From positions 1,830,001 to 1,862,000 of the forward strand of contig CP178758.1 of the NCBI GenBank assembly GCA_047651235.1: DNA of 32,000 bases, given 5' to 3'. The first letter of the stretch is position 1. Every line of letters starts with the position of its first letter. The stretch comes from Candidatus Electrothrix yaqonensis (GTDB taxonomy: Bacteria; Desulfobacterota; Desulfobulbia; Desulfobulbales; Desulfobulbaceae). The notes under the pieces are model-generated. The model did not search any database. It was not told where the DNA came from and was given only the letters and a program-made list of their open reading frames with translations. Made by a program: the position numbers and the translations under genes. This document shows, piece by piece, positions 196 through 21,598 of this stretch.

Positions 196-307
196 CTTGT
201 ATAAGAAAGTTGATTACTGCTGTTTCCTTCTGAATTGCAAGAGAAAGAGAGGAGAAAATTTGCGGTGCGGCTTTCGTAAAAAGTTTGTCAGTCGTATACA
301 GAAACAA

Positions 308-526
308 CATTCATAATTATGGCAGCGCTTATTCAGTAAGCAGGTGCTGTGCTTTCCGGTCGGAAACGGAAAGCTGATAAAGCCACAACCGCCGCGAGGC
401 GGTGTCGGAAAACTTCGGGTCTCCGGAAAGGAGACGGCCGGGTTGCCTGCTTTTAGTCAGATGTACCGGGAGGTAAGTTATGAAGTCGAAGCTCCTTAAA
501 ACGGTCTGTAACCATACAGTCCTTTT
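308..526 (+). ncRNA. Structured RNA unit 1 (riboswitch-like or sRNA-like, class unassigned)
   Basis: Closing helix AAGCAGG (338-344) / CCTGCTT (446-452). Hairpin A 351-358/367-374. Hairpin B ACCGCC-GCGA-GGCGGT (388-403, GNRA loop). Hairpin C GTCTCC-GGAAA-GGAGAC (419-435). Then GGGAGG (468-473) and ATG (480-482). Then hairpin GGTCTGTA-ACCA-TACAGTCC (503-522) followed by TTTT (523-526). GNRA loops exist only in + strand sense. Confidence 0.6.
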
Positions 527-544
527 ACCTTTCACAAACACGAA

Positions 545-766
545 CATTCATAATTATGGCAGTGCTTATTATTCAGTAAGCAGGTGCTGTGCTTTCCGGT
601 CGGAAACGGAAAGCTGATAAAGCCACAATCGTCGCGAGGCGATGTCGGAAAACTTCGGGTCTCCGGAAAGGAGACGGCCGGGTTGCCTGCTTTTAGTCAA
701 ATGTACCGGGAGGTAAGTTATGAAGTCGAAGCTCCTTAAAACGGTCTGTAACCATACAGTCCTTTT
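545..766 (+). ncRNA. Structured RNA unit 2
   Basis: Same architecture, core 578-692. Hairpin B is ATCGTC-GCGA-GGCGAT (628-643). Relative to unit 1, one C-G pair has become T-A (629:642) and one has become a T:G wobble (632:639). ATG 720-722. Hairpin plus T-run 743-766. Confidence 0.6.
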
Positions 767-784
767 ACCTTTCACAAACACGAA

Positions 785-1003
785 CATTCATAATTATGGC
801 AGCGCTTATTCAGTAAGCAGGTGCTGTGCTTTCCGGTCAGAAACGGAAAGTTGATAAAGCCACAACCGCTGCGAGGCGGTGTCGGAAAACTTCGGGTCTC
901 CGGAAAGGAGACGGCCGGGTTGCCTGCTTTTAGTCAGATGTACCGGGAGGTAAGTTATGAAGTCGAAGCTCCTTAAAACGGTCTGTAACTATACAGTCCT
1001 TTT
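785..1003 (+). ncRNA. Structured RNA unit 3
   Basis: Core 815-929. The closing pair of hairpin A changes from G-C to G:T (828:851). Hairpin B has a C-G to T:G change (870:875). The other changes fall in loops (GTCGGAAA to GTCAGAAA; ACCA to ACTA). ATG 957-959. Hairpin plus T-run 980-1003. Confidence 0.6.
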
Positions 1004-1021
1004 ACCTTTCACAAACACGAA

Positions 1022-1194
1022 CATTCATAATTATGGCAGCGCTTATTCAGTAAGCAGGTGCTGTGCTTTCCGGTCGGACACGGAAAGCTGATAAAGCCAC
1101 AATCGTCGTGAGGCGATGTCGGAAAACTTCGGGTCTCCCAAAGGAGACGGCCGGGTTGCCTGCTTTTAGTCAAATCTGTACCGGGAGGTAAGTT
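1022..1194 (+). ncRNA. Structured RNA unit 4 (3' part replaced by unique sequence)
   Basis: Core 1052-1165. Hairpin B is ATCGTC-GTGA-GGCGAT (1102-1117): the loop is GTGA, still GNRA, and the stem carries the same compensated pair as unit 2. The hairpin C stem is kept while its loop changes (GGAAA to CAAA). GGGAGG then ATG at 1195. Confidence 0.55.
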
Positions 1195-1422
1195 ATGAAA
1201 TCGAAGTTCCCCAGAAGCGGCTTGCAGCTGTCTGTTTTCTTCAGCTGCGCCAGCAGTTCAGCTGGTCGCCGCCACTCTTCTCCTTCTGTTCGGAAAAAAC
1301 ACAAAATATTTACGGATAGTATCGGCTCCAAGTGTCATCGATCAGGTGCAGTTTTAGCTCTGTCTCCAGATTTCAAAGAGGGACAGTTCGACGATACTGA
1401 AAAACATCATTCAACCTGCTAA
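1195..1422 (+). CDS. Hypothetical 75-aa ORF starting at the conserved SD/ATG of RNA unit 4 (doubtful)
   Basis: GGGAGG lies 7 nt upstream of the ATG. The product has no recognisable motif and odd composition. It is the only ORF in 788-1640. It may be noncoding. Confidence 0.2.
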   Translation: MKSKFPRSGLQLSVFFSCASSSAGRRHSSPSVRKKHKIFTDSIGSKCHRSGAVLALSPDFKEGQFDDTEKHHSTC

Positions 1423-1664: not shown

Positions 1665-2078
1665 ATGGATAGATATTTTACAATAATACTACTGATGTTA
1701 TTTCTTTGTACTGCGTCTGTGGCTATTGGAAAAGAAAATAAACAATTTTCCGGTGCTTTTTTGATTGACCAAACTGTAAAAGCAAACGATTTTACCGGGA
1801 AATCTGTTAGTGATGCCGGTGTTGCCCAAGGCGGAAATGTTGTTACAGGAATGGCGATTGCAGGAGTAGGTCAGAACGCAATTCTTGACGGTGACCTTGA
1901 ATTGAAAATGAAAAAAGGCGAGCGCAACACCCAGGGCCTGAACGTTGTTTCCGGCAAAGTAACGGCGCTTGTCGGTCAGATCGGCGTGGTTGATGAGGAT
2001 GCCGCACTGAAATCTGTAGGCAATGAGAAGTCTGCGCAGGGCATAAACGTGGTCAACGCCTGCGAGGGATGTCAGTAA
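1665..2078 (+). CDS. Secreted QG-x-NV repeat protein, copy 0 (137 aa; chimeric: divergent low-GC 5' part, 3' part identical to the array)
   Basis: GGAGG (1652-1656) lies 8 nt before the ATG at 1665; the track start at 1641 is a TTG. Hydrophobic signal peptide MDRYFTIILLMLFLCTASVAIG. From nt 1917 onward it is identical to the downstream copies. Confidence 0.8.
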   Translation: MDRYFTIILLMLFLCTASVAIGKENKQFSGAFLIDQTVKANDFTGKSVSDAGVAQGGNVVTGMAIAGVGQNAILDGDLELKMKKGERNTQGLNVVSGKVTALVGQIGVVDEDAALKSVGNEKSAQGINVVNACEGCQ

Positions 2079-2093
2079 TCAGGAAGTCGAAAA

Positions 2094-2151
2094 CGCCGGA
2101 CGGTGCGTGTCCGGCGGTACAGGATACAACGGAAGCGGTGGGGACCGCTTC
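2094..2151 (+). other. Intercistronic double hairpin, present in all six 111-bp spacers (also at +537, +1074, +1611, +2148, +2685)
   Basis: Hairpin CGCCGGAC-GGTGCGT-GTCCGGCG (2094-2116) and hairpin GAAGCGGT-GGGG-ACCGCTTC (2132-2151). Neither is followed by a T-run. TACAAT (2163-2168) and GGAG follow. Confidence 0.6.
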
Positions 2152-2189
2152 ATTAACTACACTACAATTGTACTACGGAGACTGAAGAA

Positions 2190-2615
2190 ATGAAAATGAA
2201 ATTTATAGCAGCAGCATTCGCACTGGCACTGGCAGTACCCGCAGCATCCATGGCCAACGGCGGCAGGCATCATCAGTTCGGCGGTCAGGCTGCCGGTATC
2301 GTGCAGGGTCTTGAAACCGGTGAGGATTTTTCGGCAGATTCAATAGGCGACGAGAAAGTCACTCAGGGCGGCAACGTGGTCAAGGGTAATGTGACCAAAG
2401 GTATCCTGCAGCTCGCCGATGTGGGCGGTGATCTTGATCTGACCATGGTGGGCGGCGAGCGCAACACCCAGGGCCTGAACGTTGTTTCCGGCAAAGTAAC
2501 GGCGCTTGTCGGTCAGATCGGCGTGGTTGATGAGGATGCCGCACTGAAATCTGTAGGCAATGAGAAGTCTGCGCAGGGCATAAACGTGGTCAACGCCTGC
2601 GAGGGATGTCAGTAA
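2190..2615 (+). CDS. Secreted QG-x-NV repeat protein, array copy 1 (141 aa)
   Basis: GGAG lies 9 nt before the ATG. Signal peptide MKMKFIAAAFALALAVPAASMA. QG-x-NVV occurs at residues 59-64, 94-99 and 129-134, exactly 35 residues apart. C-terminus is NACEGCQ. Confidence 0.85.
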   Translation: MKMKFIAAAFALALAVPAASMANGGRHHQFGGQAAGIVQGLETGEDFSADSIGDEKVTQGGNVVKGNVTKGILQLADVGGDLDLTMVGGERNTQGLNVVSGKVTALVGQIGVVDEDAALKSVGNEKSAQGINVVNACEGCQ

Positions 2616-2726
2616 TCAGGAAGTCGAAAACGCCGGACGGTGCGTGTCCGGCGGTACAGGATACAACGGAAGCGGTGGGGACCGCTTCATTAACTACACT
2701 ACAATTGTACTACGGAGACTGAAGAA

Positions 2727-3152
2727 ATGAAAATGAAATTTATAGCAGCAGCATTCGCACTGGCACTGGCAGTACCCGCAGCATCCATGGCCAACGGCGG
2801 CAGGCATCATCAGTTCGGCGGTCAGGCTGCCGGTATCGTGCAGGGTCTTGAAACCGGTGAGGATTTTTCGGCAGATTCAATAGGCGACGAGAAAGTCACT
2901 CAGGGCGGCAACGTGGTCAAGGGTAATGTGACCAAAGGTATCCTGCAGCTCGCCGATGTGGGCGGTGATCTTGATCTGACCATGGTGGGCGGCGAGCGCA
3001 ACACCCAGGGCCTGAACGTTGTTTCCGGCAAAGTAACGGCGCTTGTCGGTCAGATCGGCGTGGTTGATGAGGATGCCGCACTGAAATCTGTAGGCAATGA
3101 GAAGTCTGCGCAGGGCATAAACGTGGTCAACGCCTGCGAGGGATGTCAGTAA
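2727..3152 (+). CDS. Secreted QG-x-NV repeat protein, array copy 2 (identical)
   Basis: Translation and flanks identical to 2190-2615. Confidence 0.85.
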   Translation: MKMKFIAAAFALALAVPAASMANGGRHHQFGGQAAGIVQGLETGEDFSADSIGDEKVTQGGNVVKGNVTKGILQLADVGGDLDLTMVGGERNTQGLNVVSGKVTALVGQIGVVDEDAALKSVGNEKSAQGINVVNACEGCQ

Positions 3153-3263
3153 TCAGGAAGTCGAAAACGCCGGACGGTGCGTGTCCGGCGGTACAGGATA
3201 CAACGGAAGCGGTGGGGACCGCTTCATTAACTACACTACAATTGTACTACGGAGACTGAAGAA

Positions 3264-3689
3264 ATGAAAATGAAATTTATAGCAGCAGCATTCGCACTGG
3301 CACTGGCAGTACCCGCAGCATCCATGGCCAACGGCGGCAGGCATCATCAGTTCGGCGGTCAGGCTGCCGGTATCGTGCAGGGTCTTGAAACCGGTGAGGA
3401 TTTTTCGGCAGATTCAATAGGCGACGAGAAAGTCACTCAGGGCGGCAACGTGGTCAAGGGTAATGTGACCAAAGGTATCCTGCAGCTCGCCGATGTGGGC
3501 GGTGATCTTGATCTGACCATGGTGGGCGGCGAGCGCAACACCCAGGGCCTGAACGTTGTTTCCGGCAAAGTAACGGCGCTTGTCGGTCAGATCGGCGTGG
3601 TTGATGAGGATGCCGCACTGAAATCTGTAGGCAATGAGAAGTCTGCGCAGGGCATAAACGTGGTCAACGCCTGCGAGGGATGTCAGTAA
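3264..3689 (+). CDS. Secreted QG-x-NV repeat protein, array copy 3 (identical)
   Basis: Translation and flanks identical to 2190-2615. Confidence 0.85.
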   Translation: MKMKFIAAAFALALAVPAASMANGGRHHQFGGQAAGIVQGLETGEDFSADSIGDEKVTQGGNVVKGNVTKGILQLADVGGDLDLTMVGGERNTQGLNVVSGKVTALVGQIGVVDEDAALKSVGNEKSAQGINVVNACEGCQ

Positions 3690-3800
3690 TCAGGAAGTCG
3701 AAAACGCCGGACGGTGCGTGTCCGGCGGTACAGGATACAACGGAAGCGGTGGGGACCGCTTCATTAACTACACTACAATTGTACTACGGAGACTGAAGAA

Positions 3801-4226
3801 ATGAAAATGAAATTTATAGCAGCAGCATTCGCACTGGCACTGGCAGTACCCGCAGCATCCATGGCCAACGGCGGCAGGCATCATCAGTTCGGCGGTCAGG
3901 CTGCCGGTATCGTGCAGGGTCTTGAAACCGGTGAGGATTTTTCGGCAGATTCAATAGGCGACGAGAAAGTCACTCAGGGCGGCAACGTGGTCAAGGGTAA
4001 TGTGACCAAAGGTATCCTGCAGCTCGCCGATGTGGGCGGTGATCTTGATCTGACCATGGTGGGCGGCGAGCGCAACACCCAGGGCCTGAACGTTGTTTCC
4101 GGCAAAGTAACGGCGCTTGTCGGTCAGATCGGCGTGGTTGATGAGGATGCCGCACTGAAATCTGTAGGCAATGAGAAGTCTGCGCAGGGCATAAACGTGG
4201 TCAACGCCTGCGAGGGATGTCAGTAA
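3801..4226 (+). CDS. Secreted QG-x-NV repeat protein, array copy 4 (identical)
   Basis: Translation and flanks identical to 2190-2615. Confidence 0.85.
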   Translation: MKMKFIAAAFALALAVPAASMANGGRHHQFGGQAAGIVQGLETGEDFSADSIGDEKVTQGGNVVKGNVTKGILQLADVGGDLDLTMVGGERNTQGLNVVSGKVTALVGQIGVVDEDAALKSVGNEKSAQGINVVNACEGCQ

Positions 4227-4337
4227 TCAGGAAGTCGAAAACGCCGGACGGTGCGTGTCCGGCGGTACAGGATACAACGGAAGCGGTGGGGACCGCTTCA
4301 TTAACTACACTACAATTGTACTACGGAGACTGAAGAA

Positions 4338-4763
4338 ATGAAAATGAAATTTATAGCAGCAGCATTCGCACTGGCACTGGCAGTACCCGCAGCATCCATG
4401 GCCAACGGCGGCAGGCATCATCAGTTCGGCGGTCAGGCTGCCGGTATCGTGCAGGGTCTTGAAACCGGTGAGGATTTTTCGGCAGATTCAATAGGCGACG
4501 AGAAAGTCACTCAGGGCGGCAACGTGGTCAAGGGTAATGTGACCAAAGGTATCCTGCAGCTCGCCGATGTGGGCGGTGATCTTGATCTGACCATGGTGGG
4601 CGGCGAGCGCAACACCCAGGGCCTGAACGTTGTTTCCGGCAAAGTAACGGCGCTTGTCGGTCAGATCGGCGTGGTTGATGAGGATGCCGCACTGAAATCT
4701 GTAGGCAATGAGAAGTCTGCGCAGGGCATAAACGTGGTCAACGCCTGCGAGGGATGTCAGTAA
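4338..4763 (+). CDS. Secreted QG-x-NV repeat protein, array copy 5 (identical)
   Basis: Translation and flanks identical to 2190-2615. Confidence 0.85.
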   Translation: MKMKFIAAAFALALAVPAASMANGGRHHQFGGQAAGIVQGLETGEDFSADSIGDEKVTQGGNVVKGNVTKGILQLADVGGDLDLTMVGGERNTQGLNVVSGKVTALVGQIGVVDEDAALKSVGNEKSAQGINVVNACEGCQ

Positions 4764-4874
4764 TCAGGAAGTCGAAAACGCCGGACGGTGCGTGTCCGGC
4801 GGTACAGGATACAACGGAAGCGGTGGGGACCGCTTCATTAACTACACTACAATTGTACTACGGAGACTGAAGAA

Positions 4875-5300
4875 ATGAAAATGAAATTTATAGCAGCAGC
4901 ATTCGCACTGGCACTGGCAGTACCCGCAGCATCCATGGCCAACGGCGGCAGGCATCATCAGTTCGGCGGTCAGGCTGCCGGTATCGTGCAGGGTCTTGAA
5001 ACCGGTGAGGATTTTTCGGCAGATTCAATAGGCGACGAGAAAGTCACTCAGGGCGGCAACGTGGTCAAGGGTAATGTGACCAAAGGTATCCTGCAGCTCG
5101 CCGATGTGGGCGGTGATCTTGATCTGACCATGGTGGGCGGCGAGCGCAACACCCAGGGCCTGAACGTTGTTTCCGGCAAAGTAACGGCGCTTGTCGGTCA
5201 GATCGGCGTGGTTGATGAGGATGCCGCACTGAAATCTGTAGGCAATGAGAAGTCTGCGCAGGGCATAAACGTGGTCAACGCCTGCGAGGGATGTCAGTAA
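4875..5300 (+). CDS. Secreted QG-x-NV repeat protein, array copy 6 (identical; last unit)
   Basis: Translation identical to 2190-2615. Downstream sequence diverges immediately after the stop codon. Confidence 0.85.
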   Translation: MKMKFIAAAFALALAVPAASMANGGRHHQFGGQAAGIVQGLETGEDFSADSIGDEKVTQGGNVVKGNVTKGILQLADVGGDLDLTMVGGERNTQGLNVVSGKVTALVGQIGVVDEDAALKSVGNEKSAQGINVVNACEGCQ

Positions 5301-5503
5301 GTTTGCAGGTCAGGGATATTTGAGGTACAGTATACTTGACTCCTAAGTGGAAAAGCCGCCTGCCGCTGTCGGTAAGGATTTGATATTGCGTCTAATTTTT
5401 TGTTTACGGACTCGGCAGGTAAACTTTCCCGCTCGATATGTTAAGCAGGTTACCTGTTATATATTTTATTCAGATAATAATCTGTTGCTGAAGGAGGAGA
5501 ACA

Positions 5504-5941
5504 ATGGTAAAAAAAATATTTTTTACAATAGGCACCGCTGCGATCTTTTTGTTGCCGTCAGCGGCTATGTCACATGAACGAGGTAATCTCTTTGATCAGT
5601 TTAACAATGCTGATGTTGCGGCATTTCAGGGAGTATTTCTGGACCAGGCCATGACAGTGACGTCGTCGAATGATACCAATTCTGTTCAGGGACTGAATGT
5701 GATCAAGGGATTTGCTGCCGGTGGCAAAGTGGTACAAAAGGCTATAGTTGACGCAGACTTATCGTTTGATATGTCTGGCGGGAACGATGCTGTTCAGGGG
5801 ATCAATGTCTATCAGGGCCATCTCAGGAGGGGGAAAATCTCTCAGCTGGCGATTGTTGACGGTAAGGTCACGATGGCATCAAGCGGTAATGATGGTGGAA
5901 TTCAGGGGATTAATGTGATCACCGGCCCTCAGTGCAACTGA
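5504..5941 (+). CDS. Divergent paralog of the QG-x-NV repeat protein (145 aa)
   Basis: AGGAGG lies before the ATG. Signal peptide MVKKIFFTIGTAAIFLLPSAAMS. QG-[LI]-NV at residues 62, 98 and 134 (36-residue spacing). C-terminus is GPQCN. Confidence 0.8.
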   Translation: MVKKIFFTIGTAAIFLLPSAAMSHERGNLFDQFNNADVAAFQGVFLDQAMTVTSSNDTNSVQGLNVIKGFAAGGKVVQKAIVDADLSFDMSGGNDAVQGINVYQGHLRRGKISQLAIVDGKVTMASSGNDGGIQGINVITGPQCN

Positions 5942-12280: not shown

Positions 12281-13177
12281 ATGAAAATGAAATGCATCTC
12301 GGCATCTTTACTGCTCTTTTTACTCTTTTGGTTTGTTCCGACTGTTCAGGCGGCCGATTATACGAACAGTCTCGGTATGCAGTTCAACAATATCCCTGCC
12401 GGAACCTTCTTTATGGGGAGCTGTCTCCCTGAAGGAGCTGTCTGTCCCGGCAGGGGAAAAGCGGATAAAGATGCCCATAAGGGAGAGGCGCCCAAGCACG
12501 AAGTGCGGATTAGCAGAGGATTTCAGATAGGTGTTTATGAAGTCACTTTAGGAGAGTTTAAACAATATCTTGCCTGCCTGCCCGCCGGAGAGCGGGCTGC
12601 AGTGGCAACAGACAGATTCAGCAGATTTAATACACACGGGGATAATGCGGCTGTGGTGGTTGTTTCCTGGGAGGATGTACAGGGATTTATCCGCTGGCTG
12701 AACAAAAAAGAGGGTGGCCGTGCCTACCGGCTGCCCACCGAGGCGGAATGGGAGTATGCTGCCAGGGCGGGAACAGAGACGGTGTATTTCTGGGGCGATG
12801 AACCGGAGAAGGCTCCGGAATATGCCTGGCTTAACATGGAAGGAGCAGACCTGCGCAAATGGTTCCAGAAAGGGCCTTCGGGGAAAAAAGAAGATTTTCC
12901 TCATCCAGTCGGTCTGAAGAAACCCAATCCCTGGGGCTTATACGATATAGCTGGCAATGTCTGGGAGTGGGTGGATGACTGGTACAGCGAGGACTATTAC
13001 CGCATCAGTCCCAAGGTTGATCCGACCGGTCCGGCAACCGGTCGTGTCCGTTGTTTTCGGGGCGGCAGCTGGTACGGGTCGGCAAGGAATTTGCGCTCCG
13101 CTGTCCGCGGGCTGAATACCCCAGATTACCTCAGCGATTCTTTGGGATTCCGTCTGGTGCGGCAGGTCGGACGATAA
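12281..13177 (+). CDS. Secreted formylglycine-generating-enzyme (SUMF1/FGE-sulfatase) domain protein
   Basis: Signal peptide ...VPTVQA. YRLPTEAEWEYAARAG, GNVWEWVDDWY and RGGSW are hallmark strings of the FGE-sulfatase domain. AGGAG lies before the ATG. Confidence 0.85.
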   Translation: MKMKCISASLLLFLLFWFVPTVQAADYTNSLGMQFNNIPAGTFFMGSCLPEGAVCPGRGKADKDAHKGEAPKHEVRISRGFQIGVYEVTLGEFKQYLACLPAGERAAVATDRFSRFNTHGDNAAVVVVSWEDVQGFIRWLNKKEGGRAYRLPTEAEWEYAARAGTETVYFWGDEPEKAPEYAWLNMEGADLRKWFQKGPSGKKEDFPHPVGLKKPNPWGLYDIAGNVWEWVDDWYSEDYYRISPKVDPTGPATGRVRCFRGGSWYGSARNLRSAVRGLNTPDYLSDSLGFRLVRQVGR

Positions 13178-13243
13178 TTTTTCTCAGTTTCTCTGCAAAC
13201 AGGGCCGGTTCGGACCGGTTTGCAGCGGGTGGATATGATACCC

Positions 13244-14029
13244 TCATCTTTTTTCCCTGCTGAAGCGTTCTTTGAAAATCAGATAGAAAAAAAACAGGTT
13301 GCCGATCAGATATCTCTTCCACAATCGTTTCGGTTCGATGAGCAGTCTGGCCAGCCATTCCATGCCGTTGTCTGTCATCCAGCTAGGGCCTCGGCGCAAT
13401 TCCCCGGAAACATAGTCGAACAGGGCACCGGCGGAAAAACCGACATTGACGTTCAGCCTGTCCCAATTTTCCTTGAGCCACTTTTCCTGCAGCGGCATAC
13501 CGAACCCGACAATCAGAACATTGGCCTTTGAGGCATTGATCAGGCGGATAATTTCCTCATTCTCCGGCGAATCCGGGGATTTGTCAAAATATCCGTGCCG
13601 GGTGGTGATCTGCAGAGCAGGAAAACGTTCTTTCAGTTTCAGCGCAGCTTTGTCGGCGATACCCGGTTTTGCCCCGAGGAAAAAAAAGCTGATGCCTTTC
13701 TCTTCCGCCAGTTCTGCCAGGCTCCACATCGAATCGGCCGGGGTGCTGCGCCCCGGTATGTGATGACCCAGAATTCTGGCGCCCAGGACAACACCGGCTC
13801 CGTCACAGAAGACCAGCCCGGCCTGATTGAGAAAATCCCGCAGCCAGGGGTTATGATACACCATATTGTAGCAGTGCGTATTGACATTCAGGACCAGAGA
13901 CTTGCGTTGTCGGGCAACTACATCGGCGATGTACTGGCAGATTCCTGCTTCCCCTAACAGATGGACCTGCACACCGAGGATAGGGACACTGTCGAGATGG
14001 TCAAAAGACTGTATGGATTGGGTTGTCAT
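13244..14029 (-). CDS. WecB/TagA/CpsF-family glycosyltransferase
   Basis: DGAGVVLGARILG and ...GPSWMTDNGMEWLARLLIEPKRLWKRYLIGN are typical of this family. Start set at the ATG at 14029 (MTTQSIQ); the alternative at 14092 would overlap the upstream gene. Confidence 0.8.
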   Translation of the reverse strand: MTTQSIQSFDHLDSVPILGVQVHLLGEAGICQYIADVVARQRKSLVLNVNTHCYNMVYHNPWLRDFLNQAGLVFCDGAGVVLGARILGHHIPGRSTPADSMWSLAELAEEKGISFFFLGAKPGIADKAALKLKERFPALQITTRHGYFDKSPDSPENEEIIRLINASKANVLIVGFGMPLQEKWLKENWDRLNVNVGFSAGALFDYVSGELRRGPSWMTDNGMEWLARLLIEPKRLWKRYLIGNLFFFYLIFKERFSREKR

Positions 14030-14054
14030 GGTACGGTCATCAGATAAACAGGAC

Positions 14055-15212
14055 TTACTGAACAAGTTCAGTGTACAGGCGCATGTAGGCATCTGTCATT
14101 GTTTTTGCAGAGTACTTTTCCGCTATGGTTGCAAAGGCATTGGCCGCCATCCTGTCTGCTTCTTCGGGAAGGCGCAGCAGCCGGAGCATTGCGGAAGCCA
14201 GCTTTTCCGCATTGGCCGGAGGGACCAGCAGGCCGTTTTCCTCATCTTGGATGATCCGGCCTACCCCGCCGACTTCACTTGCAATGACCGGGAGTTGCGC
14301 GGACATGGCTTCCAGCAGGGCCATGGGTGTGCCTTCCAGCAGCGAAGGCAGAACAAAAATATCCAAGGCAGAATAGAATGCAGCGATATTCGGACGGAAT
14401 CCGGCAAAGATCACTGCGTCCGAGATACCGAGTTCTACAGCGTATTGCCGCATTTCGTCCCCCTGAAACCCGTCACCCACAAGAATAAAATGTGCTTCAG
14501 GGAAAACTTTCAGCACCTGCGCAGCTGCAGCAAGAAAGTATTTCTGGCCTTTTTCCGGGCTGATCCTGCCGAATACGCCGATCAGCGGCGTTCCCGGCGC
14601 GATCTTGAATTCTTCGCGAATTGTGTCCCTTGCCTGCTGATCTTTCCGGAATTCCTGCATATCGATCCCGTTGATGATCACCTGCATTTTTCCGGCCGGG
14701 GTCAGATAGCGGCGCATGAGCTGCCGGACCTCCGGTGAAACCGCGACGATTTTCGGAAAAAAGCGGATGTAAAAAGCATCCAGGGATTCAAAGCAGGTGA
14801 CCAGAAAATCACTGCGGATCCAGTTGTGATTTGTGGTGATGAGCCGGGCCGGAGTGCCCATTGCAGAGAGCAGGCCGTAGAGCCGTCCTTTCATTTCATG
14901 GCAGTGGACAACGGCAATGTTCTCCCGGCGGATGAGTTCCCTGATCTGCCGCACCGCTTCCGGATCGATCCATCTCCGGCAGGTGATGACATGCCCCTGA
15001 GCGTCTTTTGCCTGGGCAGCATTGATCAGTTCCATGTTCGGATAGCCTTCCGCTTGGAGCAGGGCTATAGACGGGGTGAAGCGGCTGTGGTCCGTAGCGC
15101 CGATCAGATTCAGGATAATGCGTTCAGCACCGTACAGACCGCGGCTGCTGATCAGATGGAGTACGTTCAGAGGCTGCTGCTCTACGGTATTCTGTGTATT
15201 CTGCTTCGTCAT
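14055..15212 (-). CDS. Glycosyltransferase family 4 (GT-B, group 1)
   Basis: 385 aa. N-terminal LHLISSRGLYGAERI and C-terminal ...LPSLLEGTPMALLEAMSAQLPVIAS...ENGLLV (the E-x7-E region of GT4). Confidence 0.85.
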   Translation of the reverse strand: MTKQNTQNTVEQQPLNVLHLISSRGLYGAERIILNLIGATDHSRFTPSIALLQAEGYPNMELINAAQAKDAQGHVITCRRWIDPEAVRQIRELIRRENIAVVHCHEMKGRLYGLLSAMGTPARLITTNHNWIRSDFLVTCFESLDAFYIRFFPKIVAVSPEVRQLMRRYLTPAGKMQVIINGIDMQEFRKDQQARDTIREEFKIAPGTPLIGVFGRISPEKGQKYFLAAAAQVLKVFPEAHFILVGDGFQGDEMRQYAVELGISDAVIFAGFRPNIAAFYSALDIFVLPSLLEGTPMALLEAMSAQLPVIASEVGGVGRIIQDEENGLLVPPANAEKLASAMLRLLRLPEEADRMAANAFATIAEKYSAKTMTDAYMRLYTELVQ

Positions 15213-15229
15213 TGTTTTTTGTTTACGGT

Positions 15230-16384
15230 TTACTCTGCTTCCGCCCTGCCTGTGCTGCGGAGCGCCAGCCGGACTGCGTCCGCATAGCCTTTTACCGCTG
15301 GTGCGAGGTCATTTTTCCGGGCAAGTATTTTTCCGGCCTCGGCCATACGTTGGCGCATCTCTGGATCACGGGCCATTTTTTCCATTGCTGCAGCCATTTC
15401 ATCCGTATTTTCCGGATCAACAATGATGCCGTTTTCCCTGACCATATCGTTGGCTGCCCCGGCATAGCGGGAACAGATGACCGGAAGACCGCAGGCCACG
15501 GCTTCAGCCACCACCAGGCCGAAAACATCCAGCCGTGTGGGCAGGACAAAGACATCATGCCGGACCATTTCTGCGGGCACAGATTCATACGGGACACTGC
15601 CCGGAAAAAGAACAGCATGCTCACAGCCCAGCTCCTTTGCCAGCGCCTTGAGCGCTTCCAGATCAACACCTTTGCCGATTAGGGTCAGCAGGGCGTCAGG
15701 GACAGATTCCAGCAGCCGGGCAAAGGCCCGGATCAGTAGGTCAATACCCTTTCTCGGCTTTATCTCACCAACATAGACGAACTTGACCGGGTCGTTATCC
15801 TGCCGTGGCGGTTTTTCCGGTACGCCGACTGCAGCCAGATGCTCCTGAATATGGGCGCTCAGGCTGCTGAGAAACTCTTTTGATTTGGGGTAACCGAAGT
15901 TGTCGCTGAAGTGATCCAGCGTGTCTGTACAGGAGCCGATCAGGGCATGGGCAAAAAAAAGCAGAAATCTGCGGTTGCTCCTTCTGAGCAGGCCCATACG
16001 TTTGTCATGGTGATAGGTCATATCTGACCAGATCACATAACTCCGCCGGTTCAACCGCGCCCAGAGGGCACCGATAATGCAGTCAAAACGGAATTCCAGA
16101 CTGACCACCACATCCGGTCGGATCTTCCTTAGCCTCTGCAGCAGCCCGGAAGGATAGCGAATCAGCAGACGCTCTCCGAACATCTGATTGGTTTTCCACA
16201 AAAAAAACGGCTTTAAATAATAGGCGCGAAAGGGCAGGTCCTCAGGAGGGTGCCATTCTCTGCCGACTTCCTTGGGCATGGTATAGAGCACCGTGATATC
16301 AAATTCACGGGCCAGTTCACGCAGCAGGGGCACCCGATAAGGATCGTACCAGGGGCACAGGATCAGGACGGTCTTTTTTTTCAT
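15230..16384 (-). CDS. Glycosyltransferase family 4 (GT-B, group 1)
   Basis: ...FVLPTRLDVFGLVVAEAVACGLPVICS...ENGIIV is the GT4 signature. Start set at the ATG at 16384 (MKKKTVLIL); a GTG at 16402 is the alternative. Confidence 0.8.
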   Translation of the reverse strand: MKKKTVLILCPWYDPYRVPLLRELAREFDITVLYTMPKEVGREWHPPEDLPFRAYYLKPFFLWKTNQMFGERLLIRYPSGLLQRLRKIRPDVVVSLEFRFDCIIGALWARLNRRSYVIWSDMTYHHDKRMGLLRRSNRRFLLFFAHALIGSCTDTLDHFSDNFGYPKSKEFLSSLSAHIQEHLAAVGVPEKPPRQDNDPVKFVYVGEIKPRKGIDLLIRAFARLLESVPDALLTLIGKGVDLEALKALAKELGCEHAVLFPGSVPYESVPAEMVRHDVFVLPTRLDVFGLVVAEAVACGLPVICSRYAGAANDMVRENGIIVDPENTDEMAAAMEKMARDPEMRQRMAEAGKILARKNDLAPAVKGYADAVRLALRSTGRAEAE

Positions 16385-16412
16385 CCGGTTATCTGGTTGC
16401 ACGATTTGCCGG

Positions 16413-17132
16413 TCAGAATTGACGTCGGCGGAAAAAATTTTTTATTCTGCGGGCAGGCTGGAGCAGGATACGCATCACCCATGTTGCACGCCACCCTGTA
16501 TTGTGCAGATCACTGTGTGAAGCACGGTCCCGGATGACTTGCGGTTCAGCAATCAGGGTCAGGGTCTCCGGATATTTTCTCCGGAAGACGTTGAACGCAC
16601 CATCGACATCTATTGGTCTGTGCTGCTCCAGTTCCTCAAGATGCTCAATGAGAGGAGCAAACGTCGGGCGGCTGACAGCGTATGCATGTGTGCATCTGAG
16701 AGAATCGGGCAGCGGGCGCATTTCGACGTGTTCGGTTTTCCGTGAAGCAAGTGTACTGCCTTCAACATGCGTATAGCCGAGGTAGGCGAAGTTCCATGAT
16801 GCGTCCTGCAGTTGCTGCTGCATAGCTGGCCAGAGTTGTTCAAATATACTGACAAATTCCACATCATCTTCTATGACAAGTACGTTTGAAAGGTCGAGTT
16901 CAGCAGCCTTTCTGAGGATGGAGAGATGACTGAGGAAACACCCCCGTACACCCGGAGAAGAAAACCCTGCTGCCTCGGTCGGCTTGACTGCCGGAAACAG
17001 CTCGACTTTTCCCGGAGTAAAGGAAATCCCGATACGTTGCAGCGCTTCTGTTATTTCCCGGCGACGGTCTATCCGCTCAGGAAGGTTGACAACATAGATT
17101 TTGTCGAAGTAGTTTTCCAATCTGTCATTCAT
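16413..17132 (-). CDS. Glycosyltransferase family 25-like
   Basis: 239 aa. N-terminal FDKIYVVNLPERIDRRREI and GCFLSHLSILRKA, VLVIEDDVEF match the GT25 pattern as I recall it. Confidence 0.7.
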   Translation of the reverse strand: MNDRLENYFDKIYVVNLPERIDRRREITEALQRIGISFTPGKVELFPAVKPTEAAGFSSPGVRGCFLSHLSILRKAAELDLSNVLVIEDDVEFVSIFEQLWPAMQQQLQDASWNFAYLGYTHVEGSTLASRKTEHVEMRPLPDSLRCTHAYAVSRPTFAPLIEHLEELEQHRPIDVDGAFNVFRRKYPETLTLIAEPQVIRDRASHSDLHNTGWRATWVMRILLQPARRIKNFFRRRQF

Positions 17133-17196
17133 GGCAATGTTGAAAATAAATTATTCCAGCTGGTTCTGTATGGTTCTCTATATAACGGCGTACCCG

Positions 17197-17883
17197 TCAG
17201 GACGTTTGCTGTTCAACAGCGGGAGATGGAGATGATTCTTCTGCCGCAAATTTCAGGCCGAAGAGATACCATACCATAATGCTGACGATCACCATCTCTC
17301 CTGCATCTTCGATTAATCCAAATACCTGTCCTCCCCAAGGAATGGCCACGTGAGCTACATCCACGACAACACCGAAAAAAACCAGAGAGCATGCCAGCAG
17401 AAAGATATTATGCGATATTTTCCGTTCATGATTGGTACTGAACAGGTAAGCCCAACCTATAAAGGAAAAGAGCAATACGCCGAACACAGCAGATACAGCA
17501 AGCTCCCCGAAATCCTGTGCCCGCAGGTTGAAGATCCCATGAAAACCGAAATAGTTGACCAGGAATTCCCCGAGTTGTTCATGTACTCTGAAGGAATCGT
17601 CAAGCAGAAAATAGAAAAACAATGCAGCCCAGGAAATATAAACTATTCTTTTTTCTTTGATCGCAATGATGCTCAGCAGGAGGATGATCCACAGTTCTTT
17701 TGTATACTGATAAAATTCCGCATATCCTTTATCCTTTTCTACTGAAAACAGGACACTTTCAAGAATACCTGCCATATAGAAAAGGTGGATCAGTACAAAG
17801 GCAAGATCTGCAGCAAGCAACAGAAACAAGAGTTTGTTCGTATTGTCATCTATGTCGAAATATTGTTTTATTCTCAGCTTCAT
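17197..17883 (-). CDS. Polytopic membrane protein, unknown function (about 6 TM)
   Basis: 228 aa with alternating hydrophobic segments. It lies inside the glycan cluster. No motif recognised. Confidence 0.6.
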   Translation of the reverse strand: MKLRIKQYFDIDDNTNKLLFLLLAADLAFVLIHLFYMAGILESVLFSVEKDKGYAEFYQYTKELWIILLLSIIAIKEKRIVYISWAALFFYFLLDDSFRVHEQLGEFLVNYFGFHGIFNLRAQDFGELAVSAVFGVLLFSFIGWAYLFSTNHERKISHNIFLLACSLVFFGVVVDVAHVAIPWGGQVFGLIEDAGEMVIVSIMVWYLFGLKFAAEESSPSPAVEQQTS

Positions 17884-17979
17884 CGCCTGTCCTTGTTATT
17901 CCGCATCTGCCTATGCGGAGCAGTTCTGTTCAGTTTTGTCGCATTTTGCTTTGACTGCTGCTGTCAGCGGCTGAGAGAT

Positions 17980-19137
17980 TTATTGCGCAACAGCATCTTG
18001 ACACAGCTTCAGCATCCGTCCTGCATTATCTTTCCATGTAAAATTATCTTCCATAACCTTTCTGGCGTTTTTGCCGAGCTCATGTCTGAGCTGTATATCT
18101 GTCATCAGGCGTTGTATCTGCTCAACCAAGGCGGCTTGATCACCCGGCGGGTACAACAGACCGCTTACGTTATCCGTAATCAGTTCACAAATCTGGCCCT
18201 GCGCAGAGGAAATAACAGATTTCCCCAGAGCCATGGCCTCAAAGATTTTCAGCGGTGAAAAATAAAACGGGGTGATTTTCGGATAAGGGGCAACAAAAAT
18301 ATCAATAACAGCAAGATATTCCGGTATATCTTCGTGTGGAACATGGCCGGTTATGGTTGTAACTGCAGCAGGAAAATCGGGCATTTCCAATATATCGCTT
18401 GGTTCTCCAATAAGCAGCAGGGCCAGTTCTTCATATTGATTTGATTCACAAATAAGCTCGATAGCTTCTGCCAGCAGAGGCAGCCCATGCCAGGGGGCAA
18501 AACTGCCTGAAAAACCCACAACGGTTTTATTCTGCAGTCCGAGTTGTTCTCGTATCCGGTTGCCGCTGATATCGGGATGAAAGACCTGGGGATCGACCCC
18601 GTTCGGAACGCTGCTTATTTTTTCCGCAGAAATGCCGCATGTTATATAATGTTGCCGTAATGTTTCAGAAACCACCATGTTATGAGTTGCCAGTCCCATT
18701 ATTTTTTTGTCCACCAGCGCCCAGAAAGATTTTCCTCTCAGCTGCTGCTCTTTCGGCATAAACTGGTCTTCCATAGGCGGGGCGTTGATTTCCAGGACAA
18801 GAGGAATTTTCAGCAGACGGCATAACAGAACCGCTGATCTGTACCGTGCCATTCGTAAGATGACAACATCCGGTCTTTCTTTTTTCAGCAGTCGGAATTC
18901 AGCCGCAGCCTGACGGGTAAACATGACAACAAGCAGGCGAATCTCGCGAAGGTGGTTTAAAATATTCGAGAAGCTCTCCTGTGATTCCTGTTCGTCGTCC
19001 TCCGGTGCATCCTGGCGGGCCAAGGGGGTATGCACAACAACATCATCGTGTATTTCTTTCAAAGCAGCGATAAACTGAGTGGTATGTACCCAAGAACCGC
19101 CACCGTATTTCTCATAATTTATGTAGCATATTTTCAT
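17980..19137 (-). CDS. Glycosyltransferase family 4 (GT-B, group 1)
   Basis: 385 aa. ...FVAPYPKITPFYFSPLKIFEAMALGKSVISS...SGLLY is the GT4-type C-terminal signature. Confidence 0.8.
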   Translation of the reverse strand: MKICYINYEKYGGGSWVHTTQFIAALKEIHDDVVVHTPLARQDAPEDDEQESQESFSNILNHLREIRLLVVMFTRQAAAEFRLLKKERPDVVILRMARYRSAVLLCRLLKIPLVLEINAPPMEDQFMPKEQQLRGKSFWALVDKKIMGLATHNMVVSETLRQHYITCGISAEKISSVPNGVDPQVFHPDISGNRIREQLGLQNKTVVGFSGSFAPWHGLPLLAEAIELICESNQYEELALLLIGEPSDILEMPDFPAAVTTITGHVPHEDIPEYLAVIDIFVAPYPKITPFYFSPLKIFEAMALGKSVISSAQGQICELITDNVSGLLYPPGDQAALVEQIQRLMTDIQLRHELGKNARKVMEDNFTWKDNAGRMLKLCQDAVAQ

Positions 19138-19190
19138 AATTTGAATTCAACTATTATGTATTCGGCATTACGGGAATACTGCGGAAATTG

Positions 19191-20045
19191 TCACATGTCA
19201 AACAAATAATTCCACTCTGTCTGCCGGAAAAAGTTCTGCAGCTCATCGTAATTTTCGATAACCTCCGACAGAGAGCGTGTTTCCTGTTTGACTTTACTGA
19301 CTTGTAAATCACGGATATCCGTTCCGATAAATTGCTGAATAGCTTTTAAATGCCTATGGGGATCTGCAGCCAGATCTTCATAAACAATATCGAATACTTC
19401 ATGAAGTCTGATATATTGTTTTATTTCCTCATGCGAAGCCTTTCTCTGCTGAAATTCAGCCAGACATTCTGTCGGATCAATCGTAACAGTTGTTGTTGAT
19501 CGTTCGGATTTATCCAGGATCCCGAATCTGCCGTCTTTCATGGCGACCAGTAATGATGTATATGCTGCCAGCAGATTTTTTCGTGTCAGATGAATAAGTT
19601 TTATGTCTTTATTTTGTTCAAGCCACTGCCGTATACACCGGAATCGGGCATTCCGCTCTATATGTTCAGGGAAGAATTTAAATCCGACTGCCTGTATCTC
19701 ATCCGGATAGAAGGAAAAAATATGGCGATCAAGGAAATCAACAGGATATTTATTTCTCAGGGCAAGGGTTCTGGTGGAATAATTGTCATATCCTTCAACA
19801 TTAAAGCCCACACTGTCTGCAGTGAAAAGTTCTCCGAAGCCGACAATCTGCGGGTGTGTCCGCAAGGTTCCGATCATCATTGAAGAACCGGACCGCTGAT
19901 GTCCGAGGATGATGAATTTCTGATAGCTCCGGTTGCTTCCTTTCAAGCCCCTTGGCAACGAGTCGATATCTGTCGGCTTCACTGCACAGGAAGAAGCGAA
20001 AAGGGCTATTTTTTGTAGTGCATTGTCAATGTGCCGTCCAATCAT
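19191..20045 (-). CDS. Sulfotransferase family protein (PAPS-dependent, Stf0-like)
   Basis: 5'-PSB-like loop ILGHQRSGSSMM. 3'-PB-like IHLTRKNLLAAYTS. Confidence 0.7.
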   Translation of the reverse strand: MIGRHIDNALQKIALFASSCAVKPTDIDSLPRGLKGSNRSYQKFIILGHQRSGSSMMIGTLRTHPQIVGFGELFTADSVGFNVEGYDNYSTRTLALRNKYPVDFLDRHIFSFYPDEIQAVGFKFFPEHIERNARFRCIRQWLEQNKDIKLIHLTRKNLLAAYTSLLVAMKDGRFGILDKSERSTTTVTIDPTECLAEFQQRKASHEEIKQYIRLHEVFDIVYEDLAADPHRHLKAIQQFIGTDIRDLQVSKVKQETRSLSEVIENYDELQNFFRQTEWNYLFDM

Positions 20046-20152
20046 TCGTATATCCTTGGTAGTTACGATGAATAATCTAACTAATAATCTATTGTAACCG
20101 TTTTTATTTGTATCTGCACAGGATTAAAACTGATATTGAAAAAGTACGACAG

Positions 20153-21598
20153 TCAGTTGGCGTGCAGAATTTTCCGAATAAAAACGTCCAGCAGTTCTTT
20201 CTGCACAAGAAGACTGCAGCCCGCATAACTGATACATATAATTCCCAGAATAGCTGTTAGTTCAATGACGTTATGCCATGCGGCCGCACTGGCGACAAGT
20301 TGTGCGAGCAGAACACCGGGAAGGACCGCGATGGTCGGACGGAATACATATTGAGCTGCATCTGAGAATGCCACTCCGGCATCCCAACACATGAAGATCA
20401 GGCGTCCGATCCCGGCTGCCATATACCCGGTTCCTGCCCCCAATGCAGCCCCTATCAGGCCGAAATACTTGGTTCCGATATATACGCTGACAAGAAACAG
20501 GGAGGTCTCAAAAATTTTCATTTTGGAGGCGAAGGAGAATGCTCCGGTTCCGGTTATGTACGGCACGCAGATATGGGTCAGACCTCTGCCTAATGTCACG
20601 AACACCAGGGCTCTGAGCACATTCCCGGATTCCGTCCAGGCCTCTCCGTAAAGGGTGACAATCAGTTCATGGGCAAAAAACGCTGCAGTAATCACAAAAG
20701 GAATAATTGTCGCCAGTTGTACCTGAAGAACATTACCCAGAACAGACCGCAGGCGGAATTTGTCGAGCTGAAGACTGCTGAATACCGGTAATGCGATCCG
20801 GTTTGCTATCTGATGAAGAAAAGAGATCGGGAAGATAGCAAGCTGATATGCAATCACATACAACCCTAATTGTTCACTGCCTTCCAGTGTGCCGACAATG
20901 AGGTTGTCTCCCTGCATCATAATCATGGTACCCGCAGCAATAACGGCAAAATGTTTTGCCACAGAAAGCAGTTCCAGCTGACAGGAGAGATCAAATTTTG
21001 GAATTTTCGGCGGAGGGAAGAAAAAATAGGCGAGCAAATTATCGAGGAACGTGCCAAGGAGAATGCCCCAGGCCAGGGCTTCGGCATCCCGGAGCAGCCA
21101 AGCCATAAAAACAACGATACTCACGTTCAGTACAGCGCAGACAGTTTCATAGACAGTAATCCGTCCGAACTGCATTGCCCGTTCGGCCAAGATGGAGTTG
21201 GGGTTGTACAATCCTTCCACTAAGGGGACAAAGGCAATAATTCGCAATACCTGCATGGTGGCAGGGTTATTGACCAGACTGCTGTATAGAGGGCAGAGTG
21301 CCAGCGCCAGCAGGGTCAGGAGAATTCCCCGGACAATATTCAACAGCCAGATATTCCCGACAATAACATCGTCAATCTTTTTTTTCTGGATTAAATACTT
21401 CTCAACACCGACCGAAGTCAGAGCATCCATTCCCTGAATCAGGACCAGGGCAAGAGCAATCAGGCCGAAGTCCTCAGGAGCCAGGAGACGGGCCAGAACG
21501 ACATTTCTGACAAAACTTATAAGCGTACTGGTAACGGTAAGAGCCGTTAGAAAAGCAGCGCTCTTGGCGGCTGTTTTGCCTAATGCCTCAGAAATCAT
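20153..21598 (-). CDS. MOP-superfamily polysaccharide/oligosaccharide flippase (Wzx-like)
   Basis: 481 aa, about 12-14 TM segments. N-terminal ...ISFVRNVVLARLLAPEDFGL is typical of Polysacc_synt proteins. Overlaps the upstream gene by 11 nt. Confidence 0.8.
   Translation of the reverse strand: MISEALGKTAAKSAAFLTALTVTSTLISFVRNVVLARLLAPEDFGLIALALVLIQGMDALTSVGVEKYLIQKKKIDDVIVGNIWLLNIVRGILLTLLALALCPLYSSLVNNPATMQVLRIIAFVPLVEGLYNPNSILAERAMQFGRITVYETVCAVLNVSIVVFMAWLLRDAEALAWGILLGTFLDNLLAYFFFPPPKIPKFDLSCQLELLSVAKHFAVIAAGTMIMMQGDNLIVGTLEGSEQLGLYVIAYQLAIFPISFLHQIANRIALPVFSSLQLDKFRLRSVLGNVLQVQLATIIPFVITAAFFAHELIVTLYGEAWTESGNVLRALVFVTLGRGLTHICVPYITGTGAFSFASKMKIFETSLFLVSVYIGTKYFGLIGAALGAGTGYMAAGIGRLIFMCWDAGVAFSDAAQYVFRPTIAVLPGVLLAQLVASAAAWHNVIELTAILGIICISYAGCSLLVQKELLDVFIRKILHAN

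Follow-up and report, generated by a model that had tools for sequence, protein, structure and literature searches.

What are the four near-identical blocks of sequence that stand in a row ahead of a set of secreted-protein genes in the cable bacterium Candidatus Electrothrix yaqonensis YB6, and what might they sense and control? The blocks lie near the start of the 32,000 nucleotide (nt) stretch of contig CP178758.1 (assembly GCA_047651235.1, positions 1,830,001 to 1,862,000 of the forward strand) that we analysed and refer to as the window; array and gene coordinates below are those of the window. Tandem Repeats Finder reported a single array in it, at 306-1210 (period 237, 3.8 copies, 94% matches, score 1632), and alignment resolved this array into four plus-strand units of 237, 240, 237 and about 190 nt or more, the last of which continues into unique sequence. 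An earlier note on this DNA had described four tandem copies of a structured RNA whose differences respect a common fold, had sensed a faint resemblance to GEMM-I RNAs and had been unable to place the element in a known class. The first statement is borne out by the repeat search, the alignment and a column-by-column comparison of the units, and the resemblance was correct, but the element does fall into a known class. Our analysis identifies the array as four complete cyclic di-GMP class I (c-di-GMP-I) riboswitches, each probably a translational OFF switch, arranged in series before a secreted-protein operon.

The class assignment comes from a cmscan search of the whole window against Rfam 15 at the Rfam gathering thresholds. 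It gave four matches, all to RF01051 (c-di-GMP-I/GEMM-I), on the plus strand and over the full length of the model (1-87 of 87), with 54.0-55.8 bits against a gathering score of 35 and E-values of 1.7e-8 to 4.7e-8. The aptamers are located at 372-450 (unit 1; 55.8 bits, E 1.7e-8), 612-690 (unit 2; 54.0 bits), 849-927 (unit 3; 54.2 bits) and 1086-1163 (unit 4; 55.3 bits). In unit 1 the class positions G20, A47 and C92 correspond to G382, A409 and C446, P2 (hairpin B of the earlier note) occupies 383-408 with a GCGA loop, and P3 occupies 411-444. G20 is G622 in unit 2, G859 in unit 3 and G1096 in unit 4, where C92 is C1159 and the P2 loop reads GUGA (GTGA in the DNA).

For comparison, an accidental 72-codon open reading frame (ORF) on the minus strand (329-547), which spans unit 1, served as a protein proxy for a DNA search. 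Its translation, and then the alignment of that translation with the first match, retrieved 'hypothetical proteins' on metagenome contigs, and these contigs (L018-L026) carry eight aptamers of the GEMM-I clan above gathering scores. The related aptamers are all single, except for two on L024 that are about 980 nt apart, and the genes downstream of them differ, encoding PilJ-like proteins (L018), a PEP-CTERM protein (L022) and a signal-peptide protein that starts directly at the AUG (L026). The four array units and these eight aptamers make up the 12 sequences compared below. When genome and metagenome collections were scanned for exact patterns of the aptamer junctions, 10 stretches came back, none of them a GEMM-I and all chance matches. 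The contigs with homologs of the genes downstream of the array all break at the repeated genes, and none extends to the riboswitch region.

Columns 20, 47 and 92 were located from the consensus lines of the variant models RF03168 (U, A, U) and RF03167 (G, G, C), and they read G, A and C in all four units and all eight relatives. G20 pairs with one guanine of c-di-GMP, and an A at this position confers recognition of cyclic GMP-AMP (cGAMP) instead (PMC6140456, PMC9481103). The G at position 20 therefore makes c-di-GMP, and not cGAMP, the predicted ligand of the units. That they might nevertheless sense 3'3'-cGAMP in the manner of GEMM-Ib, as do the riboswitches of exoelectrogenesis in Geobacter, is suggested by an electrogenic host within the Thermodesulfobacteriota and by a scaffold that resembles the Geobacter-type GEMM-I in having no tetraloop receptor. 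This option, which the earlier note had kept among its candidate ligands, is very unlikely in view of the G at the G20-equivalent position in units and relatives alike, where GEMM-Ib has adenine. The Geobacter GEMM-Ib riboswitches (Gs1761), reportedly the cGAMP riboswitches described by Kellenberger and by Nelson in 2015, share with the array the scaffold family, the broad phylum and a link to extracellular or envelope functions in electroactive bacteria, but their position 20 is A and their ligand is cGAMP. They also switch transcription on, whereas the units described here appear to be translational OFF switches.

The units belong to a receptor-less subtype, with a GYGA loop on P2 and with the internal loops and receptor columns of P3 deleted in the cmscan alignment. 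The GAAA tetraloop and the 11-nt P3 receptor of the common subtype were not found, which does not in itself exclude membership in c-di-GMP-I. P2 is 100% paired and P3 96.8% paired in the 12 sequences, with changes on both sides at 4 pairs. Membership in the specificity variants RF03167 and RF03168 is ruled out by the G/A/C found throughout, as against G/G/C or U/A/U. The compact scaffold of these two models is common to the relatives L021 and L018, which for that reason score best on them, and the aptamers concerned (L018 10154-10232 and L021 1821-1899, both on the minus strand) pass the gathering scores of RF03168 (UAU) and RF03167 (GGC) despite their G/A/C pocket; the variant models can therefore catch ordinary c-di-GMP-I aptamers with a compact scaffold. 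Judged by their pocket nucleotides, L018 and L021 are scaffold look-alikes and not members of the specificity variants. By every criterion that can be tested by computation the array units are members of the known class c-di-GMP-I, with binding itself a prediction.

Do the differences between the four units speak for a functional RNA? Pairwise identity ranges from 92.3 to 98.5%, and 20 columns per unit are variable. Six of these fall in stems, where pairing is retained in all six, and the others fall in loops or linkers. The stem changes comprise one C-G to U-A double change and four C-to-U changes to wobbles, none of them disruptive; this includes substitutions private to the internal units 2 and 3 (C to U at the equivalent of 374, at 870 and at 563), all of which preserve pairing. 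The wobbles include the G:T pairs at 632:639 and 1106:1113 (equivalents of 392:399), 870:875 and 828:851, while the loop of hairpin C changes from GGAAA to CAAA in unit 4 with its stem retained. Every pair named in the earlier note could be confirmed in the sequence, as could the GNRA loop and the hairpin C stem. Its double compensatory change is also present, with C-G at 389:402 and in unit 3 but T-A at the equivalent pairs of unit 2 (629:642) and unit 4 (1103:1116), though it counts for less than it seemed to. The same grouping of units (1,3) against (2,4) is common to four sites, so that the array has the look of a two-unit block that was duplicated, and the double change represents one evolutionary event, not two.

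One might also ask whether the four copies are real, or whether mis-assembly of long reads or polishing produced them. Assemblies of this organism from short reads do break at the neighbouring repeats, and Pilon polishing can homogenise repeat copies (PMC12093952). The YB6 genome is closed, however, and was assembled from Nanopore R10.4.1 and Illumina reads (PMC12093952). At 0.9 kb the array is far below the length of Oxford Nanopore reads, which span it easily, and its 20 differing columns form a phylogenetically coherent pattern, so that an assembly artefact is scarcely credible.

How such a unit might switch is indicated by the helices around the aptamer. Two stretches hardly vary among the 12 sequences, GGAAAGYUGAUAAAG on the 5' side and GCCUGCUUUU on the 3' side, and within them GAAAGYUG (369-376 in unit 1) and CURCUUUU (447-454) pair to form P1 in all 12. 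The 5' strand of P1, GAAAGCUG in unit 1, recurs at 609-616, 846-853 and 1083-1090, and the 3' strand, CUGCUUUU, which begins directly after C92, recurs at 687-694, 924-931 and 1160-1167. The top pair G376-C447 directly follows C92 and stands 6 nt ahead of G20. P1a of the Vibrio cholerae riboswitch Vc2 has the same geometry (6-nt J1/2 ending in G20), and so has P1 in the RF03167 consensus. In Vc2, the ligand guanine that is paired to C92 stacks on G14, and G11, G14, G94 and U96 define P1a (PMC11705072).

Hairpin A is located immediately upstream, at 351-374 in unit 1 (GCUUUCCG / CGGAAAGC, -13.6 kcal/mol) and at 591-614, 828-851 and 1065-1088 in the other units, and is paired in 92.7% of cells across the 12 sequences. 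Its 3' arm (367-374) overlaps the 5' strand of P1 (369-376), and hairpin A and P1 are therefore mutually exclusive. The hairpin had been counted as part of the aptamer in the earlier note; as its 3' arm is the P1 strand it excludes the ligand-competent aptamer, and we read it as a structure of the apo state. The consensus fold from RNAalifold, which is blind to the ligand, contains hairpin A, P2, P3 and a small extra pairing that buries C92, and is plausibly the unliganded form. The extra pairing joins GUCGG (404-408, 3' side of P2a) to CCUGC (446-450, made up of C92, C93 and the first bases of the P1 3' strand), corresponds to columns 103-107 with 154-158 of alignment A5 and can form in all 12 sequences. 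In the unliganded state it would bury C92, and it accounts for the variable base 449 as well as P1 does.

The helix that the earlier note took to enclose a three-hairpin aptamer fares worse. Its strands AAGCAGG (338-344) and CCTGCTT (446-452) are found in all four units, and it adds -9.3 kcal/mol in unit 1. Over the 12 sequences, however, this outer helix is paired in only 75% of cells and is indistinguishable from shuffles, and it is complete only in the YB6 genome and L021. Homologous units, which the earlier note had proposed to search for, did turn up as the eight single aptamers, but they brought no covariation for this helix. It is thus not supported as the aptamer P1, given its lack of conservation, of covariation and of any excess over shuffles; AAGCAGG is possibly an apo-state decoy for the P1 3' strand in the YB6 lineage. 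A local P1 formed by CUGAUAAA and UUUAGUCAG next to G20 was likewise rejected, as it brings no energy gain (+0.7 kcal/mol) and is not conserved. The AAGCAGG segment is buried by a 5' stem-loop, SLb (319-350 in unit 1, -12.2 kcal/mol; 556-590, 796-827 and 1033-1064 in the others), which persists in L018 and L021, with G-C in place of a U.G pair, and is 69-74% paired overall. Further upstream, UUCAUAAUU (310-318) is complementary to AAGUUAUGAA over the start codon (477-486, and equivalents), and the two pair in unconstrained minimum free energy (MFE) folds; this 9-bp pairing was not seen in L018, the single relative inspected by eye. The sequence CATAATTATG is a perfect palindrome.

What connects these helices to gene expression is the Shine-Dalgarno (SD) region downstream of each aptamer. 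In unit 1 the SD region ACCGGGAGG (465-473) and an AUG (480-482) together span 465-482, with the same arrangement at 705-722, 942-959 and 1180-1197, and in all 12 sequences an SD and an AUG follow C92 by 31-37 nt. The ORFs that start at this conserved AUG measure 4 to 97 codons and are unrelated among the sequences. The 5' arm of hairpin A together with the next bases (352-360, CUUUCCGGU) constitutes an anti-SD, in which CUUUCYGGU is complementary to ACCRGGAGG at 465-473. In an unfitted MAFFT alignment the anti-SD:SD pairs are formed in 84.3% of cells, as against 40-66% for slid-partner controls, and the complementarity covaries at pair 357:468, which is C-G in nine sequences and U-A in two. 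Without any alignment, the duplex reaches -12.6 to -15.8 kcal/mol in 10 of the 12 (-15.4 kcal/mol in unit 1), values attained by at most 3.5% of shuffled SD regions. The two aptamers of L024 (132-219 and 1108-1186, both on the minus strand) each possess their own hairpin A, anti-SD, SD and AUG, and both are in the U-A state of the covarying pair.

The bound state was modelled by MFE folding with only the P1 pairs imposed and with G20 and C92 held unpaired. Imposing P1 alone yielded the GEMM-I P2 and P3 together with an anti-SD:SD helix stacked outside P1, and the mean unpaired probability of the SD, initially 0.36-0.38 in units 1-3 and 0.16 in unit 4, dropped to 0.01 in all four. L022 and L024a behaved alike. 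The energetic price of imposing this state is 0.4-5.4 kcal/mol for the four units and 2-9 kcal/mol for the relatives, which we estimate, from RT ln(Kd/[L]) with Kd the dissociation constant and [L] the ligand concentration, to be payable by a ligand of nanomolar or tighter affinity at micromolar concentration. In these predictions the anti-SD is sequestered in the apo state and free to pair with the SD in the bound state, as a translational OFF switch would have it.

Each unit would then work as follows. In the absence of ligand, GGAAAGCUG would be locked into hairpin A through pairing with the upstream arm GCUUUCCG, with the SD 90 nt downstream accessible. Binding of c-di-GMP, to G382, A409 and C446 in unit 1, would let the canonical P1 form between GAAAGCUG and CUGCUUUU, hairpin A would open, and its freed arm CUUUCCGGU would pair with ACCGGGAGG outside P1 and mask the ribosome-binding site (RBS). 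Each unit would thus be a translational OFF switch acting on a short leader ORF. Once translation of the leader is lost, terminator-like hairpins and C-rich RNA would probably be exposed to termination, and expression of the operon would need all four units to be unliganded, giving a steeper and tighter repression by c-di-GMP than a single unit could. The OFF direction is what we infer from the homology that makes P1 the ligand-stabilised helix, together with the thermodynamic modelling. Repression of translation by masking of a distant RBS is ascribed to Vc2 itself (Inuzuka et al. 2018, as cited in PMC11705072). Vc2, the type example of RF01051 from the tfoY leader of V. cholerae, shares with the units P1, a GNRA-looped P2, P3, the nucleotides G20/A47/C92 and the 6-nt J1/2. 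The units differ from it in having no tetraloop receptor (GCGA or GUGA loop), in the deleted P3 internal loops, in having as anti-SD the 5' arm of hairpin A, the competitor for the P1 5' strand, and in standing four in series where Vc2 is single.

The opposite direction of switching would follow if the outer helix were the P1 of a four-way junction. Hairpin A would then be closed when liganded, the anti-SD sequestered and translation on, and in the apo state AAGCAGG would be lost to SLb and the SD masked by the anti-SD. The energies allow for this to some extent, with -9.3 kcal/mol for the outer helix against -12.2 kcal/mol for SLb and near iso-energetic states at -52.5 and -55.4 kcal/mol, and the outer helix is present in 4 of 4 units and in L021. 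High c-di-GMP, moreover, usually induces matrix and secreted proteins. On the other hand, in 8 of the 12 members the outer helix is absent or only 5 bp long and shows no covariation, while aptamer, hairpin A and anti-SD are kept in all of them. In addition, the 7-bp outer helix pairs C92 itself and would leave 38 nt between P1 and G20, compared with the 6-nt J1/2 of Vc2 and the Rfam models. We consider an ON switch improbable.

Several points weigh against the OFF-switch reading nevertheless. The P1 pairs are almost invariant and hence show no true covariation, and the sole variable one, 374:449 (C-G, U.G or U-A), can equally be explained by pairing of 449 with 405. The complementarity to GGAGG follows in part automatically from the purine-rich P1 strand, so that only the flanking CYGG/CCRG pairs are independent evidence, and their U-A state may go back to one or two events. 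Two relatives, L021 (-8.3 kcal/mol) and L025 (-6.6 kcal/mol), have a weak anti-SD:SD duplex, and the outer helix (-9.3 kcal/mol) could shift the balance in the YB6 genome. The folding is thermodynamic only, while hairpin A is transcribed first and must be displaced. Further downstream, the terminator-like hairpins are weak (-8.6 kcal/mol) and their formation in the model is insensitive to the ligand state. A transcript shared by array and operon is presumed; the gap between them measures 470 nt and contains promoter-like sites at 1498-1526 (scan) and at about 1559 (by eye). Among the relatives, finally, we found no second related array with which the value of four copies could be compared.

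Whether all four units are carried on one leader depends on transcription of the region. A candidate promoter (TTGACT followed by TATACT or TGTATAAG) was seen by eye at 169-205 on the plus strand, although it fails the spacing rule of the promoter scan, and it would place all four units on one leader. The scan gave no promoter-like site inside 306-1210. A promoter in each unit (CATAAT) was rejected, as it lacks an acceptable -35 element and does not appear in the scan. Every one of the four aptamers comes with a hairpin A/anti-SD, an SD and an AUG of its own, and no gene intervenes between them. From the AUG of unit 4 a 75-codon ORF (1195-1422, plus strand) extends beyond the array; its product gave only a self-match among 1.84e9 representatives, and without homologs it is probably not a gene but a leader ORF. 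In units 1-3 the ORFs (480-617, 720-854 and 957-1091) end at a UGA inside GCUGAUAAAG, the P1 5' strand of the next unit. A ribosome terminating there would sit on the hairpin A/P1 of that unit, which could couple neighbouring units or could be coincidence; the arrangement is one observation copied three times.

Within the short ORFs of the first three units lies a terminator-like hairpin followed by a U-tract (503-526 in unit 1, plus strand, and 743-766 and 980-1003). This raises the question of whether the array is a series of transcription attenuators under direct control of the aptamers, with termination 22-46 nt beyond each AUG. In favour of this, the hairpins are more stable than shuffled sequences (-8.6 kcal/mol, z -3.7) and have UUUUACCUUU behind them, a terminator-like site in unit 4 was picked up by the scan at 1217-1231, and most described tandem riboswitches use terminators (PMC9481103). 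Yet we could identify no antiterminator pairing between aptamer and hairpin, constraining the fold to the bound state leaves the predicted formation of the hairpins unchanged, the stem is weak (7 G-C/A-U pairs and a U.U mismatch), and the hairpins stand downstream of a conserved SD and AUG. The unit 4 counterpart (1217-1240) is only weak, relatives lack a hairpin at the equivalent place, and terminator scans gave no conserved terminator in their leaders. Direct attenuation is about as doubtful as the ON switch.

What the leaders of unit 4, L018 and L021 do share is a composition rich in C and poor in G over the 100 nt that follow the AUG. RNA of this composition, when untranslated, is the kind used by Rho. 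A C/U-rich element (for example GCCGCCACUCUUCUCCUU, CCGCCACCCUCCUC and CCGCCUCCUUUU) recurs after the leader AUG, at 1240-1300 in the window and about 75-95 nt after the AUG in the leaders of L018, L021 and L024, and could be a Rho loading site or a second anti-SD. A more elaborate form of the translational OFF switch would be a cascade of attenuation coupled to translation, in which ribosomes on the leader ORFs, each ending in the P1 strand of the following unit, suppress the terminator-like hairpins and the array acts as a fourth-order, near-digital c-di-GMP gate on production of the repeat proteins. We regard such a cascade as unlikely. If it were true, the gate would decide over the production of amplified secreted, possibly fibre- or sheath-forming proteins that are almost unique to the lineage. 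Coupling to transcription, co-transcription with the operon and a benefit of four copies are in each case what we infer for the OFF-switch array.

Is there, then, a role for the number of units at all? Each unit might work as proposed, with the tandem copies a recent by-product of a locus that readily amplifies and without adaptive role, such that only unit 4 (1023-1210) matters for downstream expression and units 1-3 are redundant passengers. Tandem amplification is evidently active at the locus, where six identical 537-bp gene copies follow the array, related aptamers on other contigs are all single apart from the L024 pair, the (1,3)/(2,4) pattern bespeaks block duplication, and the ORFs of units 1-3 encode chimeric junk peptides. 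Against neutral duplication, the units have diverged by 2-8% with zero pair-breaking changes, including those private to units 2 and 3, which argues for continued constraint. Tandem c-di-GMP-I arrays are also recurrent and are enriched in the Thermodesulfobacteriota, the phylum of the cable bacteria (PMC12452182). Passenger status of units 1-3 is a lesser possibility, but one to be taken seriously.

With 347 doublets and 12 triplets, c-di-GMP-I is the commonest class among tandem riboswitches (Sherlock et al. 2022, PMC9481103), so that the expectation of the earlier note that such an array would be unusual whether the RNA was known or new does not hold; the one new feature in this respect is that there are four copies. 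Where tandem riboswitches have separate platforms, they are expected to be pseudo-cooperative and more digital (PMC9481103, PMC12452182), and the triple-tandem Bc3-Bc4-Bc5 of Bacillus thuringiensis is credited with a sharpened response (Zhou et al. 2016, as cited in PMC9481103). Like Bc3-Bc4-Bc5 and the catalogued doublets and triplets, the array comprises complete c-di-GMP-I riboswitches with their own platforms on one leader. It differs from them in having four copies, in platforms that look translational and not of the intrinsic-terminator type, in its predicted OFF direction, in copies that are near-identical recent duplicates, and in its cable-bacterium host. No quadruplet c-di-GMP-I array is reported in PMC9481103, and a literature search for 'quadruplet' gave nothing further. 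The array is thus a modest extension of the known c-di-GMP-I tandem series from three to four. Its novelty, which is likewise modest, lies in the four copies, in a hairpin arm that doubles as partner of the P1 competitor and as anti-SD, and in the host and the target genes.

The presumed target is an operon on the plus strand at 1665-5941, and the position of the array upstream of secreted repeat-protein genes, as described in the earlier note, is borne out. The operon comprises a 137-aa gene, six identical 141-aa genes and a gene for a 145-aa paralog. The 141-aa genes form six perfectly identical 537-bp tandem copies (gene plus spacer) at 2079-5300, flanked by the diverged 137-aa and 145-aa paralogs; that they do not differ at all could be due to amplification in the very recent past, to gene conversion or to polishing. 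A signal peptide, three QG[GLI]NV[VI] repeats and a C-x-x-C at the C terminus (C-E-G-C-Q) characterise the small proteins. Pfam and NCBIfam returned nothing for them, only seven homologs turned up among 5.8 billion proteins, and a scan of genome contigs found no relative of the 141-aa family. An AlphaFold2 model of the 141-aa protein, built from an 8-sequence alignment, had a mean confidence (pLDDT) of 34.5 and is unusable. To call the operon matrix-like is fair but unproven.

Behind the operon repeats follow genes for a 115-aa and a 512-aa protein and trpS on the opposite strand, and the gene order 142-145-103-385-trpS is retained on the related contig L004. A polysaccharide cluster at 12281-22532, mostly on the minus strand, encodes a WecG/TagA-type transferase, three GT4 and one GT25 glycosyltransferase, two sulfotransferases, a Polysacc_synt_3 flippase and an FGE-sulfatase-like protein; this gene content suggests that the cluster makes a sulfated exopolysaccharide. 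It is followed on the minus strand (22591-31968) by a 3125-aa ORF for a three-module non-ribosomal peptide synthetase (three times condensation, AMP-binding and PP-binding) with a terminal thioesterase. The paper on strain YB6 describes abundant extracellular sheaths and does not mention riboswitches (PMC12093952), and a full-text literature search found no paper on a riboswitch of cable bacteria.

For RNA biology, the units show how the reading of a fold from a single sequence can merge two mutually exclusive conformers into one structure. Four near-identical units with simple SD-masking platforms also amount to a clean natural test of how copy number affects the dose-response. For the cable bacteria, the array offers a first concrete regulatory handle on c-di-GMP signalling, and, if it controls the operon as presumed, it links c-di-GMP to an orphan and heavily amplified family of secreted repeat proteins that adjoins a putative sulfated-polysaccharide cluster in a sheath-rich strain.

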